Of a stretch of DNA of 64,000 bases, positions 3,486 through 61,684 are shown in pieces. A program made the translations under genes and the position numbers. The notes under the pieces were generated by a model. The model worked only from the letters and a program-made list of their open reading frames with translations. It was not told where the DNA came from and made no database searches. This stretch comes from an uncultured Gammaproteobacteria bacterium (GTDB lineage: Bacteria > Patescibacteriota > Patescibacteriia > Patescibacteriales > UBA12465): the NCBI GenBank assembly GCA_964570655.1, contig CAZMYU010000004.1:49-64048 (forward strand), written 5' to 3'. Each line of letters opens with the position of its first letter. Position 1 is the stretch's first letter.

Positions 3486-4565
3486 ATGGCTAAAAGAGTT
3501 ATAATTAGTGCTCCAGGACGCTTGCATTTTAATAGTTTAAAAATGAATTCATTTGGTGGGCGTGGCTGTGGTGGTATTGGTTTGTCCTTGACTCGACCCA
3601 GGATGACTCTAATCTTTGATCGCGCCCCCGAAATTATAATTGTTGGTGCCAATAAACAATTACGTAAAAAAATTGAGAATTTTGCCCGAGAGGTTCTTAA
3701 ATGTATTAAATCGGAGCTGGGAGTCCGCATTGAAGTCGTTGAATTTTTTCCTGGTCAAATTGGATTGGGCAGCGGCACACAGTTGGGTTTGAGTGTTGGT
3801 CAAGGAATTGGTTTGTTATATGGCAAGAAATTTAAGATTGACGATATTGCTAAATTGACGAAAAGGAGTGGGGTTTCTGGGATCGGCTATTACGCTTTTT
3901 CTAAAGGCGGATTAATTGTTGATGGTGGTTATCGAATGGGAGAACATGAAGCTAAGAAGAGCTTTGCTGACCATAGTCCGACGCCGCCACCTCTTGTCGG
4001 GCGTTATCGTTTTCCGGATAATTGGAAGATTTTACTTATCTCGCCGCAAGGAACCCCAAAAAAGAATTCTGATATTGATGAAGGGGAATTATTTTTGAAA
4101 AATACTCCGATTCCGCTCGATGAAGTCGGGTCTATTTGTTCGTATGTGCTTATGGGTATGATTCCAGCTCTCCAGGAGAGGGATTATTTTGCTTTTATGG
4201 CTGGTTTGTCGCGTATTGGTCATATTGGCACAAAAAAAATCGAACTCGAATTGAATAAAAAAAATTTGGAAGATATTAATACTCGTCTAGATGGTTTATT
4301 GGTCAATAAATTAATAAGAAATGGTGAAAATGAATTTTACTGGCATGACCTGTCTGGTTTTGATATCAAAGAAAATTTTTCACCAGATAAGATACCCTGT
4401 TTGTTGCTTAGTTCTTTGGGACCTTCACTTTTTTCTATTTTGTTGAGTGAATATCATAATTTTGAAAAAATATTATCTGAATTAGCCAGTAAATTGCCAA
4501 AAGGTTGGAAAGCAGATATTGTTTCTGCTAATAATAACCCAGTAAAAATCGAAATAATTGATTGA
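3486..4565 (+). CDS. GHMP-kinase-fold enzyme, beta-RFAP synthase / archaeal-type sugar kinase-like
   Basis: GQIGLGSGTQLGLSVG (GHMP motif II in the GLGSGTQL form); ATG at 3486 follows the upstream stop by 1 nt. Confidence 0.6.
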   Translation: MAKRVIISAPGRLHFNSLKMNSFGGRGCGGIGLSLTRPRMTLIFDRAPEIIIVGANKQLRKKIENFAREVLKCIKSELGVRIEVVEFFPGQIGLGSGTQLGLSVGQGIGLLYGKKFKIDDIAKLTKRSGVSGIGYYAFSKGGLIVDGGYRMGEHEAKKSFADHSPTPPPLVGRYRFPDNWKILLISPQGTPKKNSDIDEGELFLKNTPIPLDEVGSICSYVLMGMIPALQERDYFAFMAGLSRIGHIGTKKIELELNKKNLEDINTRLDGLLVNKLIRNGENEFYWHDLSGFDIKENFSPDKIPCLLLSSLGPSLFSILLSEYHNFEKILSELASKLPKGWKADIVSANNNPVKIEIID

Positions 4566-8295: not shown

Positions 8296-8337
8296 ATAGC
8301 GCTCTTTTTCGTTTTAAAATTAAGACTTTGGCTCATC

Positions 8338-8378
8338 CACTCTGGCACTCTGGTGCCTGGCACCAGAGTGCCAGAGTG
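8338..8378. repeat. 41-nt perfect palindrome centred on CCTGG
   Basis: CACTCTGGCACTCTGGTGCC-t-GGCACCAGAGTGCCAGAGTG; core GGTGCCWGGCACC shared with 28131-28167. Confidence 0.85.
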
Positions 8379-8441
8379 CTTGATTTTTTGCCTCAAAACT
8401 GATTAAATAGTTGATACTTTAACAGTACTTAAATTATCAAA

Positions 8442-9901: not shown

Positions 9902-10696
9902 CATTTTAATTTTTTTTTTAAAATAGTAAAGCCGCTGTCTGGGACAGCGGCTTTTTCTTAACAAGATTCTTCTGAATTAATTTTTTTTAAAATTTTAATT
10001 TTTTCAGAACTTTTTTCTAGCTGAGCTTGGACCCATTGTTAGTCAAGTTGCAATTGCAATAAATTACATCTGACTTTTTTAGATCTCTTTTGGTCTAGCT
10101 TTGGCCTTTTTAAATTCTCTTGAAATTAATCTCCCACTTTCAACACCTCCTTTTCGTGTTTTTTAAATTGTTTGTATTATCACGACGCATGACGAGGGCC
10201 TATTTAGGGGGCGGTACCTGGTACCGCCTTCCCCGAGATAAAGCTTTAGTCCTGCATATTCGTCGTTTTTAAAGGTTATTAGGATTATAGCAGGTATTAA
10301 TTCAGCTGTCAAGGCTTATGGCCAAAACTGTCCAAAATTAAAAACAGCAATTTATGGGGTTATTTAAGCAAATAAAAGTAATTAATAAAGTTTGTCAAAA
10401 AATATTAACACTATAAAAAAAGTGTTTAAAATTTATTACACTTTTTGCTATAAAATACCCTATTTTTCTAGCTTTTTTGAGTTATCCACAGAATTCTGAC
10501 AAAGCCTATTGACATATTTATTTTCGTATGCTAGGGTATGACCATAGTGATGTTTGACATTCGACCCAAATTTAATTGCTTGATTTATGTTTGTAAGGTT
10601 TTAGCCTTAGAGCTAAAATTCCAAACAATAATTTTTCCAAAATATACTTGTCTTTATGCCTTTATAGGCATAAACCAACCAATTAAATTTGAAATT

Positions 10697-26182: not shown

Positions 26183-26214
26183 GCTGGATCCCCAATCAAG
26201 TTGGGGATGACAGA
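26183..26214. repeat. CTGTCATCC-hairpin-GGATCCAG element, copy R4 (inverted orientation)
   Basis: Reverse complement reads TCTGTCATCCCCAActtgaTTGGGGATCCAGC. Confidence 0.8.
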
Positions 26215-26224
26215 TAAAAATTAT

Positions 26225-28126
26225 ATGAGTAAAATTTTAGGAATTGATTTGGGAACGACTAATTCGGCGATGGCTATTATGGAGGGTGGTGTCCCCAAAA
26301 TTATTGAAAACATTGAAGGCAATCGGACTACTCCATCGGTAGTGGCGATGTCCAAAAATAATGAAAGGATTGTTGGCCAAACTGCTAAACGTCAGGCGGT
26401 TATTAATCCAGAAAATACTATTTATGCGCTGAAGCGTTTAATCGGTCGCCGTTTTGAAGATGAAGAAGTTGGTCGGGATCTCAAAACCATGCCTTACAAG
26501 ATCGTTAAATCTGGTGAGGGTGTTAAAGTGATCATGAACGACAAAGAATATTCTCCCCAAGAAGTATCGGCCATGATTTTAAGCAAGCTCAAAGCTGATG
26601 CCGAAGCCAAGTTGGGTGAAAAAATTACCGAAGCCATTATTACTGTGCCGGCTTATTTTGACGATTCGCAACGTCAGGCCACCAAGGACGCTGGGCTCAT
26701 TGCTGGTTTAGAAGTTAAAAGAATTATCAATGAACCAACGGCGGCCGCCCTGGCTTATGGTTTTGATAAAAAACAAGGACAGAAGATCGTGGTCTATGAT
26801 TTAGGCGGCGGTACTTTTGATGTCTCGGTTTTAGATATTTCCGCTGATACTGTTGAGGTCAAAGCTACCACTGGCGACACTCATTTGGGTGGCGAAGATT
26901 TTGATAAACGAATTATTGATTATATTATTGAAGAGTTCAAAAAAGATCAGGGCATTGATTTGTCCAAAGATACTTTGGCTCTCCAGAGAATCAAAGAGTC
27001 CGCTGAGAAAGCCAAGATTGAATTGTCCACCACCATGGAGACCGAAATTAATCAGCCTTTTATTACCACCGATCAAAACGGACCCAAGCATTTGGTGATG
27101 AAAATTAATCGGGCCAAACTGGAATCACTAGTGGCTGATTTAGTCGACAAGACGATTGCGCCTTGCAAAAAAGCTTTGGCTGATAGTGGTTTTAGTTTGA
27201 GTGATATTAATGAAGTGATTATGGTGGGTGGTATGACTCGAATGCCGCTAGTTCTCGCCAAGGTCAAAGAATTTTTTGGTAAAGAGCCAAATCTAACGGT
27301 TAATCCGGACGAAGTAGTGGCGATGGGAGCAGCGGTGCAAGCGGGCATTTTGCAGGGTGATGTCAAAGACGTTTTGCTCTTAGATGTCACTCCGTTAACT
27401 TTGGGTATTGAAACTTTAGGTGGCGTCGCTACCCCACTCATTGAAAGAAACACCACTATTCCGACCTCCAAGGCTCAGGTTTTTTCGACCGCCGCTGATA
27501 ATCAGCCGAGCGTGGAGATTCATATTTTGCAAGGTGAACGACCCATGGCTAGCGACAACAAAACTTTGGGACGATTCATTTTGGATGGTTTACCAGCGGC
27601 TCCACGAGGCGTCCCTCAAGTGGAGGTCAAATTTGATTTGGATGCTAATGGTATTTTGAATGTTTCGGCCACCGATAAAGCTACTGGCAAAATGCAGCAT
27701 ATTACTATTACCGCTTCTTCCGGACTCTCCAAAGAAGAGGTGGAAAAAATGAAAAAAGAAGCTGAACTCCATGCGGCTGAAGATCAAAAGAAAAAAGAGC
27801 AAGCCGAAATCAAAAATCAGGCTGAAGCCGTAGTCTTTACGACTGATAAATTATTAAAAGAATCTGGTGACAAAATGAAAGAAGAAGACAAAAAAGAATT
27901 GTCTGACAAGGTGGAGGAACTTCGTAAAATTAAAGACAGCGAGGCTTGGGATGATATCAAAAAGAAAATGGAAGAATTAAACGCTATTGCTCAACGCATT
28001 GGTACGGCCATGTATCAACAAAATCAAAGTGCTCCAGGTCCAGAAGCTACTCCAGGTGAAAATCCGACCGAAGAGAAAAAGGAGGGCGAGACTGTCGTGG
28101 AAGGTGAAGTGGAACCAAATAAATAA
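26225..28126 (+). CDS. dnaK: Molecular chaperone DnaK (Hsp70)
   Basis: [37 protein letters not shown]; ATG 26225 gives the canonical [10 protein letters not shown] start. Confidence 0.95.
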
Positions 28127-28130
28127 AATC

Positions 28131-28167
28131 TGGTGCCAGGCACCATCAATAAAGGTGCCTGGCACCA
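28131..28167. repeat. Paired 13-14-nt palindromes centred on CCAGG / CCTGG
   Basis: TGGTGCCAGGCACCA-tcaataaa-GGTGCCTGGCACCA directly after the dnaK stop. Confidence 0.85.
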
Positions 28168-50950: not shown

Positions 50951-51034
50951 AAGATTAAAAGATTGAAAGATTAAAAGATTGAATGATTATTTAATTAAAA
51001 ATTTTTCAATCTTTCAATTTTCAATTTTTCAATT
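50951..51034. repeat. AT-rich inverted repeat built from GATTGAAA / GATTAAAA words
   Basis: AAGATTAAAAGATTGAAAGATTAAAAGATTGAA ... TTTTCAATCTTTCAATTTTCAATTTTTCAATT. Confidence 0.75.
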
Positions 51035-51353: not shown

Positions 51354-52479
51354 ATGTTTTCTAATAAGAAACAATTTTTTGCTTTTACGCTAATAGAGCT
51401 ACTCGTTGTCATTGCTATTATTGGTATTTTGGCGACTGTTAGCGTGATTGCTTTAAATAATGCTCGGGCCAAATCACGAGACACCAAAAGAGTCGCTGAC
51501 ATCAAGCAATTAACCACGGCTTTAGCCCTCTATTATAATGACAAAAAAGAATATCCCATAAACTTTAACAGCTGGGCAACCACTTTATTCTACTAGTTTG
51601 GATGGCTCTGGGGCGGTGGTGACCTCTACCTATCTTTCTTCTATTCCGAGTGCTCCCAGCACTGTGGACGGAGCTAATTGTACTAGTGGCACCAATGCTT
51701 ATAGTTATGGAACCTCTTCTGATTTGCAATCTTATACCTTGTCAACTTGCGTCAATAATTCTCCGCAAACTAGCCAGAATGTTTCTTATATTGCTGATCC
51801 CAACCAGGTTCAGCCTTGTGGTGCTTATGTAATTAATTACGAGGGCAAAACTTATCGGACCGTGCAGATTGGTACTCAATGTTGGATGAAAGATAATTTG
51901 AATGTCGGAATTAGAGTTGATAATTCTAACCCCAATGCTTGTACTCAAGATGATGCTAATAATGGAATTATTCAAAAATATTGTAAATCAAATCTAGAAT
52001 CCAATTGTGATACTTATGGAGCCTTGTATTGCTGGCATACTGTTATGGCCTTTGCTTCCACTAGCGACCAGGTAGCTACTCCTACCGGGGTCAATACTCC
52101 TCATCGGGGCATTTGTCCGCCTGGCTGGCATGTTCCTACTGATGCTGAATTGGGAACTTTAGAAACTTATGCTACTAATCCTGGTCAGGCTTGTGACCAA
52201 AGCAGAAATAGCGCCCCGCCAGCAGCTAGCTGTTTGGGGGCGGGGACCAGATTGCTTTCCGGTGGTTCATTGGGTTTTGATATGCAATTGGCCGGTACTA
52301 TTGGTTATGATGCTGCCGCTCAAGGGACTTATGGCGAATTGCAATCGGTTACCACTTCGGCTTATCCCTCATCTTATTTCCGGCAATTTACTAATGCTTC
52401 CTCGACTATTGGTCGCCAAACTTGGTGGGGTCATTCTTGGCGCTACAATGGCAAATCATTGCGGTGTATTAAAAATTGA
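51354..52479 (+). pseudogene. Type IV pilin-like protein with C-terminal FISUMP domain, split by a +1 frameshift near 51559-51597
   Basis: FTLIELLVVIAIIGILA prepilin N-terminus (51354-51596); frame +1 continues YLSSIPSAP... then YRTVQIGTQCWMKDNL, YGALYCW, CPPGWHVPT, SLRCIKN (51598-52479). Confidence 0.65.
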
Positions 52480-52511: not shown

Positions 52512-53894
52512 ATGGCCTCTAATGTAATTTATACTTGCTCGAAGTGCGGCGCCCAATTTCCAAAATGGAGTGGGCGTTGTTTGGAATGTGGAGCTTGGGG
52601 AACCATTGGCGAAGAGACAGTCGAAAAAGAAGGAGAAGTGCGGGGGCTCAAATCTTTGGATTTGAAAAAAATAAAAGGAGCTAATTTGGTTGATCTCAGC
52701 CAGGTCTCGGCTTTGAGTAGTGAACGCTTGCAAACGGGTTGGCCGGAAATAGATCGAGTTTTAGGTGGCGGTTTAGTAAAAGGCTCGCTTATTTTGCTGG
52801 CTGGTGAGCCAGGAATTGGTAAGTCTACTTTAGCCAATCAAATCACCGATTTACTTGGGGTCAGACCCCAAGGGGAGGGGTCTGACCCCAGCTCTATAAT
52901 CTATGTTTCTGGTGAAGAATCAGCTAGTCAGGTCAAGACTCGCTTAGAAAGATTAGGCTGTGATTTGCATAAGACCAAGTTTATTGGTGAAACTCACTTG
53001 GAAAAAATCATGAGCTCTCTTTTGGAATTGAAACCAGCGCTGGTGATTATTGATTCTATTCAAACTATTTATTCGTCGGAGTTGCCTTCGGAGGCTGGCA
53101 GCTTGAATCAAATTCGAGCAGTGGCGGTCAAGTTTTTAGAACTAGCCAAGACCCATGATATTACTATTTTTCTCATCGGGCATATTACCAAAGACGGGCA
53201 AATCGCTGGGCCCAAATCGCTCGAGCATATTGTGGATACCGTGCTGTATTTAGAAAATGATCAGACCCATTTTTCGATTTTACGAGCAGTCAAAAATCGT
53301 TTTGGTTCGCTCAATGAAATTGGTGTACTAGAAATGACTAGCAGTGGGTTTAAGGAAATAAAAAACCCTTCAGCGATTTTTATTGAAGGGATGAACGAAG
53401 AAATTGCCGGCTCAGCGATGGGGGTGATTTTGGAAGGAACTCGGCCTTTTATTGTTAATATCCAGGCCCTAGTGACCAAAACTATTTTTGGTTATCCCCA
53501 AAGAAAATGTGCGGGTTTTGATGTGAATCGACTTCAGATTTTGTCAGCGGTGCTGAGTCGTAAAAATAAAATCAATTTAAGTACTCAGGATATCGTCCTC
53601 AATTTAGTGGGTGGGCTCAAGACTAATGATCCGGCTTTAGATTTGGCCGCGGTGATGGCCATGGTCTCGTCGTATTTGAATCAACCGCTTCCGCGGGATT
53701 TAATTATTATTGGTGAGATTGGACTAGGCGGAGAAGTTCGGCCGGTCAAAAATTTAGAAACGAGAGTTAAGGAAGCTGTTAAATTAGGTTTTAAAACTAT
53801 TATGGTCCCGGATTCTCTAAATAGTATTAGCGGAGTTAAATTATTGAAAGTGAAAAATATTAGCGAAGCCTTGAAATTATTATCAAATAAGTAG
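52512..53894 (+). CDS. radA: DNA repair protein RadA/Sms
   Basis: CSKCGAQFPKWSGRCLECGAWGT zinc finger, GEPGIGKST, KNRFG, Lon-like C-terminal domain. Confidence 0.95.
   Translation: MASNVIYTCSKCGAQFPKWSGRCLECGAWGTIGEETVEKEGEVRGLKSLDLKKIKGANLVDLSQVSALSSERLQTGWPEIDRVLGGGLVKGSLILLAGEPGIGKSTLANQITDLLGVRPQGEGSDPSSIIYVSGEESASQVKTRLERLGCDLHKTKFIGETHLEKIMSSLLELKPALVIIDSIQTIYSSELPSEAGSLNQIRAVAVKFLELAKTHDITIFLIGHITKDGQIAGPKSLEHIVDTVLYLENDQTHFSILRAVKNRFGSLNEIGVLEMTSSGFKEIKNPSAIFIEGMNEEIAGSAMGVILEGTRPFIVNIQALVTKTIFGYPQRKCAGFDVNRLQILSAVLSRKNKINLSTQDIVLNLVGGLKTNDPALDLAAVMAMVSSYLNQPLPRDLIIIGEIGLGGEVRPVKNLETRVKEAVKLGFKTIMVPDSLNSISGVKLLKVKNISEALKLLSNK
52857..52889. repeat. 33-nt paired-palindrome element lying in frame inside radA
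   Basis: GGGGTCAGACCCC-aagggga-GGGGTCTGACCCC = codons GVRPQGEGSDP between Walker A and YVSGEES. Confidence 0.8.
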
Positions 53895-61444: not shown

Positions 61445-61516
61445 GTCCTCATAGTTCAACGGATAGAACGCAAGATTGCGGATCTTGAGATCTAGGTTCG
61501 ATTCCTAGTGAGGGCA
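61445..61516 (+). tRNA. tRNA-Arg with anticodon GCG
   Basis: Acceptor GTCCTCA/TGAGGGC, D stem GTTC/GAAC, anticodon stem CAAGA/TCTTG with loop TTGCGGA, T-arm CTAGG-TTCGATT-CCTAG, discriminator A. Confidence 0.85.
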
Positions 61517-61562
61517 CTAAAACAAAAACTCGTCGTTTAAAAACGATGAGTTTTTGTTTTAG
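61517..61562 (+). terminator. Long hairpin directly after tRNA-Arg
   Basis: CTAAAACAAAAACTCGTCGTTT-aa-AAACGATGAGTTTTTGTTTTAG. Confidence 0.6.
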
Positions 61563-61571
61563 TGCCTCTCC

Positions 61572-61614
61572 AAATGGAGCCAGGCTCCAAGTAATAAAGG
61601 AGCCTGGCTCCATT
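61572..61614. repeat. Paired palindromes centred on CCAGG / CCTGG
   Basis: AAATGGAGCCAGGCTCC-aagtaataa-AGGAGCCTGGCTCCATTT; same layout and AATAAAGG linker as 28131-28167. Confidence 0.85.
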
Positions 61615-61684
61615 TGACTTTCGCCTCTCAAGTGTTATAATAATCTATTCTTGATAGTTTTTTGAAACCCGATAAATTATAGAC

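Follow-up and report, generated by a model that had tools for sequence, protein, structure and literature searches.

A putative miniature palindromic repeat lying in frame within radA of a patescibacterial genome

Sequence and composition of the radA element

The stretch of DNA considered here (the window) comprises 64,000 nt of contig CAZMYU010000004.1 in assembly GCA_964570655.1, positions 49 to 64,048 of the forward strand, from an uncultured bacterium placed by GTDB in the Patescibacteriota, and our analysis concerns a short palindromic element within its radA/sms gene. This gene is an open reading frame (ORF) of 460 aa on the plus strand (52512..53894), adjoined by an uncharacterised ORF of 293 aa and by a helicase-like ORF which, read from its translation, has recG-like motifs. 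The element, at 52857-52889 on the same strand, is 33 nt long and consists of GGGGTCAGACCCC (arm 1, 52857..52869), the spacer or hairpin loop AAGGGGA (52870..52876) and GGGGTCTGACCCC (arm 2, 52877..52889). The arms are perfect reverse complements of each other, and a flanking T and A lengthen them to 14 bp (52856-52890); when a terminal U-G pair is included, the full predicted hairpin extends over 52855..52891 with a 15-bp stem and a 7-nt loop. Each arm is also a palindrome in itself, with GGGGTC and GACCCC placed on either side of one centre base (6+1+6), and because of this the orientation of the arms, inverted or direct, can be told from the centre base alone, which is A in the first arm and T in the second.

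The first base of codon 116 is also the first of the element, which is codon-aligned and free of stops, so that a palindromic repeat stands in frame in a coding gene. Its codons, GGG GTC AGA CCC CAA GGG GAG GGG TCT GAC CCC, specify GVRPQGEGSDP (residues 116-126), which sits between GKSTLANQITDLL, in the Walker A helix (104-115), and SSIIYVSGEES, with its strand at 129-132. Arm 1 supplies G V R P (GGG GTC AGA CCC C), the spacer Q G E (C|AA GGG GA|G) and arm 2 G S D P (G|GGG TCT GAC CCC), the last in a reading frame which bypasses the TGA present in one of the frames of that arm. A preliminary description of this DNA had reported the same codon-aligned pair of palindromes ahead of the YVSGEES strand, and both the sequence and the ORF agree with it. 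There is no target-site duplication at the element, the flanks being CTT and AGC.

The element is foreign to its surroundings in composition. It has 72.7% G+C, against 39% for the window and 42% for the radA gene, and 0.13% of all 33-nt segments of the window are equally GC-rich. With the large genes of the window as the reference for codon usage, GGG is used for all three glycines (14% usage), CCC for both prolines (15%) and GAC for the aspartate (17%). The predicted RNA fold of the hairpin has a free energy of -31.6 to -32.2 kcal/mol (z-score -4.0 to -4.5), and one of 200 shuffled sequences was as stable. An intrinsic (Rho-independent) terminator is ruled out, since no T-run stands behind the hairpin, whose tail is AGCTCTATAATC, and a terminator scan did not call it terminator-like. 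A known RNA family is likewise ruled out, as Rfam 15 at the gathering threshold matched two tRNAs and nothing else in the whole window, and nothing at the element.

Linker length and predicted structure of RadA

The encoded protein matches the solved RadA of S. pneumoniae (5lkm_A, E = 5e-115). Its best relatives in a collection of 5.8 billion proteins are RadA sequences of Falkowbacteria and Patescibacteria, at 59-64% identity, and on this sequence evidence it seems reasonable to label the source organism as resembling the Candidate Phyla Radiation (CPR). For the 120 best RadA homologues the linker in question was taken to be the distance between GK[ST]T and [YV]xSGEES. It is 16 aa long in 103 of the 120 and 18 aa in 12, with one sequence each at 14, 17 and 27 aa and one further sequence that had no motif match; the linker of 24 aa is unique to the window RadA. 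The sole other long linker at the same place among the 120, that of 27 aa, belongs to a homologue from ENA ERZ1426827 (P0095) and reads ...KIGAIHLRQDSEGQGKNKVIY. A protein search with a 64-aa segment of RadA returned gene fragments alone, none of them carrying the insert.

In the HMMER alignment 5lkm_A has a gap of eight residues opposite GVRPQGEG, and the net gain is therefore eight residues and not 11. Removal of all 11 residues would leave a linker of 13 aa, which is shorter than that of any RadA homologue. The preliminary description had estimated a linker about eight residues longer than usual, as is now borne out, and had proposed an insertion of 11 residues; of this the presence of sequence that is extra relative to all 119 homologues stands, while the size has to be revised, some host codons having been replaced. 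Among the relatives whose linker is 16 aa long, those that score best have ...KLSEQGEVLY or ...KLSAQGEVLY, and since these show QGE at the position matching the QGE encoded by the spacer, the spacer may be host sequence that was kept while one arm was added on each side of it.

An AlphaFold2 model of moderate quality (43 sequences, mean predicted local distance difference test score, pLDDT, 71) has a helix at 104-115, coil at 116-128 and a strand at 129-132, with pLDDT of 65-67 across the blocks of the insert and of 77 and 86 in the adjoining blocks. The insert is thus modelled as coil that joins the P-loop helix to the strand after it, where the preliminary description had expected a surface loop.

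Filled and empty alleles in recG

A twin of the radA element is found in recG of Candidatus Staskawiczbacteria, which belong to the CPR. At locus L103 (6264-6296) recG contains GGGGTCAGACCCC ACGAAAA GGGGTCTGACCCC, which matches the element in radA both in its 13-7-13 layout and in frame and encodes GVRPHEKGSDP. A relative that is 87% identical has an empty site, KQGET, and reads ...ATA TTT | AAA CAA GGC GAA ACA | ACA GAA..., while the filled gene reads ...ATA TTT | GGG GTC AGA CCC CAC GAA AAG GGG TCT GAC CCC GTG | ACA GAA.... In passing from the empty to the filled state 15 nt were replaced by 36 nt, a net change of +21 nt, and there is no target-site duplication between the two alleles. The same site is filled in independent assemblies from NCBI, ENA and JGI.

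The peptide GVRPHEKGSDP is present in four of 40 RecG sequences, which fall at three places in a neighbour-joining (NJ) tree, and each of these placements adjoins sequences with a loop of the ancestral type, K-x-G/N-E-T. The 33 nt are 100% identical in L103, L135 (4832-4864) and L265 (11071-11104), whose recG genes are 77% identical overall and 59% identical at third codon positions, and the flanking codons diverge within 4-6 nt of the element. Identical runs of equal length are also present at conserved recG motifs, and for this reason the signal of mobility or maintenance that this identity would carry is suggestive rather than decisive. In L269 (4072-4107) the element differs from that of its sister L265 by two substitutions, G1 to A and C33 to T, at bases that form one pair of the long hairpin, so that the two make up a single compensatory change of the stem.

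Core palindromes occur at three or more loop sites of recG overall. A second site lies between the DEQH and SMTATP motifs, where L269 (about 4279-4317) has two cores around the ancestral Lys-Lys codons, 12 nt having been replaced by 39 nt; L265 (11288-11300) has an element of the L269 type from which 15 nt have been deleted in frame, and L135 (5028-5048) has a core plus a remnant. Other relatives have core pairs at the second or at a third site. The first loop of recG also holds other perfect palindromes, with arms of 21 nt in L138 and 22 nt in L140, a GATGTC-S-GACATC doublet in L263 and, in L264, a palindrome of 35 nt that has GTCTGAC at its centre.

In-frame copies in other genes

Elements deep within long ORFs were sought among the fetched loci, and the genes were verified against Pfam; at high-GC loci the coding status refers to the cases listed here. 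In hisF, on metagenome contig Ga0247841_10000018 (L191, 2052-2083), two GGTGCC cores (GGTGCCAGGCACC) split by AAAAAA encode the peptide RCQAPKKVPGTF, and the insert falls within one continuous Pfam His_biosynth match. An arginyl-tRNA synthetase (ArgRS; L093) carries the peptide SGSDPRTGTGVRPQ between its N-terminal and catalytic domains, an HrpA-like helicase (L092) has three cores between Helicase_C and HA2, a GH36 alpha-galactosidase (L053) has three cores within the GH36N domain, and an AMP-binding enzyme (L028) contains the peptide RGQTPFLTKGSDPF. Further copies lie in the N-terminal region of a BlaR1-type protein (L096) and in the linker of an FAD-oxidase fusion (L091). Both types of core, that of radA and that of the intergenic copies described below, are therefore found in frame in conserved genes, namely recG, hisF, argS, hrpA and those for the GH36 alpha-galactosidase and the AMP-binding enzyme. 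Whichever of its six frames is read, the core encodes G-x-x-P, as in GVRP, GSDP, GQTP and GLTP, and a stop arises solely in GGG GTC TGA.

Distribution of the 13-bp core

A scan of one genome per species in GTDB for two GGGGTCWGACCCC cores 3-20 nt apart gave, among the matches listed, 151 pairs at at least 120 loci. These matches include Lachnospiraceae, Oxalobacteraceae, Alcaligenaceae, Halomonas, Actinomycetes, Solirubrobacteraceae, Acidobacteriota, Planctomycetota, Omnitrophota and a WWE3 genome of the CPR, the phyla among them including Bacillota, Pseudomonadota, Actinomycetota, Acidobacteriota and Planctomycetota as well as the CPR (WWE3); complete isolate genomes, for example NZ_CP197474.1 and AP025573.1, are also represented. 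The preliminary description had placed the phenomenon in a CPR-like setting, but it is not specific to the CPR, given the occurrence of the 13-bp core in many phyla. The centre bases of the 151 listed pairs are A/T in 61, T/A in 29, A/A in 36 and T/T in 25, so that about 40% of the pairs are direct, and the spacers take every length from 3 to 20 nt.

A profile of the flanks of 354 cores has no conservation past the 13 bases and no conserved tag. G is avoided just 5' of the core and C just 3' of it, and there is a weak richness in A on the 5' side and in T on the 3' side. Within lineages, among the matches listed, flanks and spacers are family-specific: Duganella and Rugamonas have GTAC or GCAT loops with an outer CCCCGCAC...GTGCGGGG, two Vicinamibacterales genomes have an identical 38-nt perfect palindrome at different loci, and Solirubrobacteraceae and Halomonas have tandem arrays of cores. 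The copies are therefore dispersed repeat families that are built on one common core.

On viral contigs, pairs seeded with GGGGTC occur in 12 stretches (7 contigs), those with GGTGTC in three and those with GGGGAC in two, against none for the controls GGGGCT and GGGTGC and none for GGTGCC and GGAGCC. The idea that any GC-rich palindrome pair would be common is ruled out by the contrast between the two controls and the 12 stretches for GGGGTC. On one IMG/VR contig of 50.9 kb, GVMAG-S-404869-41_000001 (L124-L126, L129, L131, L132), short-looped GGGGTCWGACCCC doublets stand at six separate places; the contig is labelled as a giant-virus metagenome-assembled genome (MAG) and belongs either to a virus very rich in repeats or to a bacterium and was binned wrongly.

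Pairs of the intergenic core of the window, GGTGCCWGGCACC (GGTGCC), occur at at least 120 loci in JGI metagenomes, a lower bound as are the counts of the GTDB scan, and the two types of core meet in other genomes. In a Solirubrobacteraceae MAG of 74% G+C (DASZEJ010000050.1; L032, 5545-5767) four copies of GGGGTCAGACCCC are arrayed with a period of 33, and after this array, within 32 nt, comes another of four G(G)TGCCTGGCACC with a period of 22-23. A composite of the form core-(A/G)TTTCCTAGCAAA(T/G)-core exists with either type of core, as ATTTCCTAGCAAAT in L034 and as GTTTCCTAGCAAAG in L202, the two spacers differing at 2 of 14 positions, where 0.04 such pairs would be expected under the null. 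These side-by-side arrays and the shared composite are what tie the radA-type and intergenic-type cores together. Text searches of the literature for the core strings gave nothing relevant, nor was anything specific found on the CPR in combination with palindromic insertions. The terminal repeat of Tn3, which starts GGGGTCTGAC, was considered as a relative of the core and dropped as an unsupported coincidence.

Related palindromes within the window

A script that picks out odd palindromes whose reverse complement comes next, no more than 40 nt away, found four loci in the window, the radA element among them, against none in 29 of 30 Markov shuffles and one in the remaining shuffle. The pattern GGNGNCWGNCNCC has eight matches where 0.11 are expected. 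The paired-palindrome loci of the window are not due to chance. Two of these are intergenic doublets to which no strand is assigned. The first, (T)GGTGCCAGGCACC atcaataaa GGTGCCTGGCACC(A) at 28131..28167 (doublet 28132-28166; predicted fold -30.5 kcal/mol), begins 5 nt past the stop codon of the ORF at 26201..28126 and has T-rich tails on the non-coding strand alone. The second, CAAAT GGAGCCAGGCTCC aagtaataaa GGAGCCTGGCTCC ATTTG at 61571..61616 (doublet 61576-61611; predicted fold -37.1 kcal/mol), is located downstream of a tRNA. The loops of the two doublets are alike, and the change that sets their stems apart is matched by compensation at each of the four symmetric positions. A denser variant, also intergenic and without strand, is the long hairpin at 8333..8383 (script locus 8344-8372; predicted fold -45 kcal/mol), at the centre of which is the core GGTGCCTGGCACC (8352-8364).

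A lone intergenic perfect palindrome of 19 nt, GGCGGTACC-T-GGTACCGCC at 10210..10228, likewise without strand, is centred on CCWGG and may be a related singleton; it has two KpnI sites around its CCTGG centre, with runs of G and C on its flanks. AT-rich perfect hairpins at 61513-61566 (26-nt arms) and 25-68 (20-nt arms) both start ACTAAA(A)CAAAAA(A)C and may be a second repeat family. The former shares bases with the 3' end of the tRNA at 61445-61516 and is situated directly upstream of the GGAGCC doublet. At 50951-51021, upstream of small ORFs, there is a cluster of direct and inverted repeats of the AAGATTGAAAGATT type, and one small ORF nearby (51354..51596) has an N-terminus like that of type IV pilins, FTLIELLVVIAIIGILA. 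Among short words, CCWGG (117 against 77 expected), GCCWGGC (14 against 4.7) and GTCWGAC (9 against 1.9) are over-represented in the window, and GGWCC and GCWGC are under-represented. The extra GTCWGAC copies are mostly TTGTCWGAC within genes and are probably Leu-Ser-Asp codons rather than decayed elements.

Discussion

We consider it likely, with a probability of roughly 0.7, that the 33 nt in radA represent one copy of a miniature repeat, GC-rich and made up of nested palindromes, which has become fixed in a permissive surface loop of RadA. The repeat would consist of two inverted 13-bp core palindromes, GGGGTCWGACCCC, around a spacer of 7 nt, and the core would belong to a class of the form GGNGYCWGRCNCC, which would include the intergenic GGTGCC and GGAGCC copies of the window and whose cores are found as singles, inverted doublets and arrays in many phyla. 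The proposal in the preliminary description, of a palindromic repeat inserted in frame and adding a surface loop to RadA, is to this extent supported by the length of the linker, the structural model, the composition and the in-frame copies elsewhere. The copy could have survived in the gene because the net change is a multiple of three (+24 nt), Gly-x-x-Pro can be read in every frame, the frame used skips the lone TGA, and the insert falls in coil, where the P-loop helix comes to its C-terminal end. The peptide would be a passenger, and the unit maintained would be the DNA or RNA hairpin, as is suggested by the one compensatory change of the stem and by the identity of the DNA in diverged recG lineages. 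We infer that one and the same process gave rise to the radA copy and to those in recG, and that the radA copy is probably neutral or selfish.

As to the route of entry, cut-and-paste transposition with target duplication does not fit, because a few host codons are replaced, there is no duplication and the spacer may be of host origin. Our best guess is that another copy of the repeat would have served as the template, whether through template switching or in short-patch repair at a break; alternatively a hairpin-specific enzyme could have been involved. We entertain, tentatively, a wider proposal in which several pan-bacterial core palindromes (GGGGTCWGACCCC, GGTGCCWGGCACC, GGTGTCWGACACC and others) spread singly or as inverted doublets by an undescribed sequence-specific mechanism, the radA element being one copy. 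Such palindromes might enter intergenic DNA and permissive protein loops without target duplication, sometimes clamping a few host bases between two arms, might be kept as perfect hairpins by concerted compensatory change, and might reappear at one site in separate lineages in a homing-like manner and decay by deletion.

Several points weigh against our preferred interpretation. No RadA relative above 64% identity exists in the collection of 5.8 billion proteins, and in consequence an empty allele of radA is lacking and the event can be neither dated nor delimited. The palindrome encodes 11 aa while the net gain is 8 aa, so that either a clean 33-nt insertion did not take place or a deletion came later. 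There are no copies of the exact 33-mer in the JGI metagenomes, the genome matches listed do not include the source genome, whose donor copies of the radA-type core are thus putative, and no second core of the GGGGTC type is present in the 64-kb window. The preliminary description had seen in the two intergenic pairs the same architecture as in radA, and both are indeed paired palindromes, but out of 13 bases the arms in radA have no more than 9 in common with the intergenic cores (GGTGCCAGGCACC). Judged from these sequences, it is within the window the architecture that would connect them, and we link the two kinds of element because of this shared architecture together with the evidence from other genomes. 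The recG tree is a simple distance (NJ) tree, which recombination could blur. No mobilising enzyme turned up, the genes of the window not having been annotated to seek one. Finally, our interpretation gives no account of the recurrence of the same 13-mer across phyla, which could reflect a shared recognition mechanism or convergence.

A local origin that required no donor would have proceeded from a quasi-palindrome in the ancestral linker, extended and perfected by template switching during replication (fold-back synthesis). The net gain of eight residues and not 11, the apparent replacement rather than displacement of host codons, the lack of target-site duplication between the recG alleles and the possible host origin of the spacer are all compatible with this, as are the several unrelated perfect hairpins of the recG loop (L138, L140, L263, L264), since such loops readily gain palindromes. 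It is nevertheless an unlikely explanation. The arms are the exact 13-mer that recurs at at least 120 loci across phyla and in the recG twin, and its independent invention here would be very unlikely; an identical patch of 36 nt is moreover found in three recG clades, and the composition is foreign to a genome of 39% G+C.

The element could instead be a selected feature, either an adaptive surface loop of RadA or a regulatory hairpin in the radA mRNA or DNA that acts in pausing, processing or attenuation, and the palindrome would then follow from that function. A hairpin of -32 kcal/mol is strong, the recG stem has been kept by compensatory change with identical DNA across diverged lineages, and radA and recG are both genes of branch migration and repair. 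We regard this as improbable, however, in that the same cores are present in unrelated genes (hisF, argS, hrpA, those for the glycosidase and the AMP ligase) and in intergenic DNA, 119 of the 120 RadA homologues do without the insert, which uses rare codons, and the hairpin has neither the T-run of a terminator nor a match in Rfam.

Two further explanations have very little in their favour. A site for site-specific recombination, with the core layout used by tyrosine recombinases, is suggested by analogy: loxP has a 13-8-13 layout, and in lox, FRT and dif-like sites fixed inverted arms stand around a crossover spacer of 6-8 bp, a geometry which the 13-7-13 of both radA and its recG twin resembles. 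This would nonetheless be a most improbable identity for the element, because spacers range from 3 to 20 nt across the family, many pairs (about 40%) are direct, each arm is itself palindromic, no boundary of an element is seen in radA, and the ORFs that directly flank radA do not, judged from their translations, look like recombinases. An artefact of assembly or sequencing, which might be suspected as the source is a MAG contig and chimeric reads can yield palindromes, is excluded in practice by the exact fit of length and frame to the ORF, by the same type of element in frame at the recG site in the independent NCBI, ENA and JGI assemblies, and by cores in complete isolate genomes (NZ_CP197474.1, AP025573.1).

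The radA element is RPE-like in behaviour and REPIN-like in architecture, and it is a member of neither family. Rickettsia palindromic elements (RPEs) are palindromic repeats of about 150 bp that lie in frame in unrelated housekeeping genes, where they encode a fold-compatible peptide, and also in intergenic DNA (PMC10969869). The radA element is likewise an in-frame palindromic repeat in a housekeeping gene. RPEs, however, form about ten Rickettsia-specific families, with lengths of about 100-150 bp and a conserved peptide of tens of residues, whereas the radA element has 33 nt and 11 codons and a 13-bp core common to many phyla, with flanks and spacers particular to each lineage, and is set apart by its size. 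The precedent that the preliminary description drew from RPEs thus holds for the behaviour of in-frame insertion and not for membership of an RPE family.

With repetitive extragenic palindromic (REP) sequences and their hairpin-forming doublets (REPINs) the radA element shares a GC-rich palindromic unit and the arrangement of two inverted units and a short spacer that give one long hairpin. REPINs are mobilised by REP-associated tyrosine transposases (RAYTs) and, in this like the radA element, insert without target duplication, by a mechanism of the IS200/IS605 type, and their copies are mostly intergenic and belong to families that are multi-copy within genomes. The radA copy is intragenic, and of the four loci with this architecture in the 64-kb window one has the GGGGTC core. 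REP sequences are lineage-specific and usually imperfect palindromes of 20-40 nt with a GTAG or CGTC tag (PMC3733652). The unit in radA is, by contrast, a perfect 13-mer with a core found across phyla and with copies within genes, and it has no tag: none of GTAG, CTAC, CGTC and GACG stands beside the radA arms in the interval 52840-52905.

Transposable elements of the miniature inverted-repeat type (MITEs) can sometimes be fused in frame with host ORFs (PMC10969869). As in these small and non-autonomous elements the ends of the radA element are terminal inverted repeats, here perfect over 13-14 bp, but the radA and recG sites have no target-site duplication and have lost host codons by replacement, and the radA element is far shorter, with an interior that is possibly host sequence. 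The radA element is therefore placed in none of the RPE, REP and MITE families, lacking as it does the size of the first, the tag and, in this copy, the extragenic location of the second and the target-site duplication of the third. In mitochondria, the GC clusters and double-hairpin elements of fungi and the hairpin repeats of sponges and placozoans are GC-rich palindromic modules that have spread in AT-rich genomes and are tolerated in frame. These are organellar and of other sequence, and their likeness to the radA element is one of analogy only.

Conclusions

The insertion in frame of palindromic repeats, as it is best known from the RPEs of Rickettsia and the GC clusters of organelles, is extended by these findings to the CPR/Patescibacteria and to many other phyla, and to an element whose size is an order of magnitude smaller than that of precedents of the RPE type. 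The cores give rise to small ORFs that are spurious, with GSDP, GVRP, VPGT and CQAP among their peptides, they cause variation of loop length in core genes used in phylogenetics, and they mark permissive sites of insertion in RadA, RecG, HisF and ArgRS. If the recurrence of the core and the patchy pattern at the same site in recG do reflect mobility, a mechanism not so far described would be at work, by which one specific short palindrome is written into both genomes and proteins. If, in addition, the core has spread across the bacteria as a whole, it would represent minimal mobile DNA of a kind that is new, from which Gly-x-x-Pro loops would arise time and again in conserved proteins.

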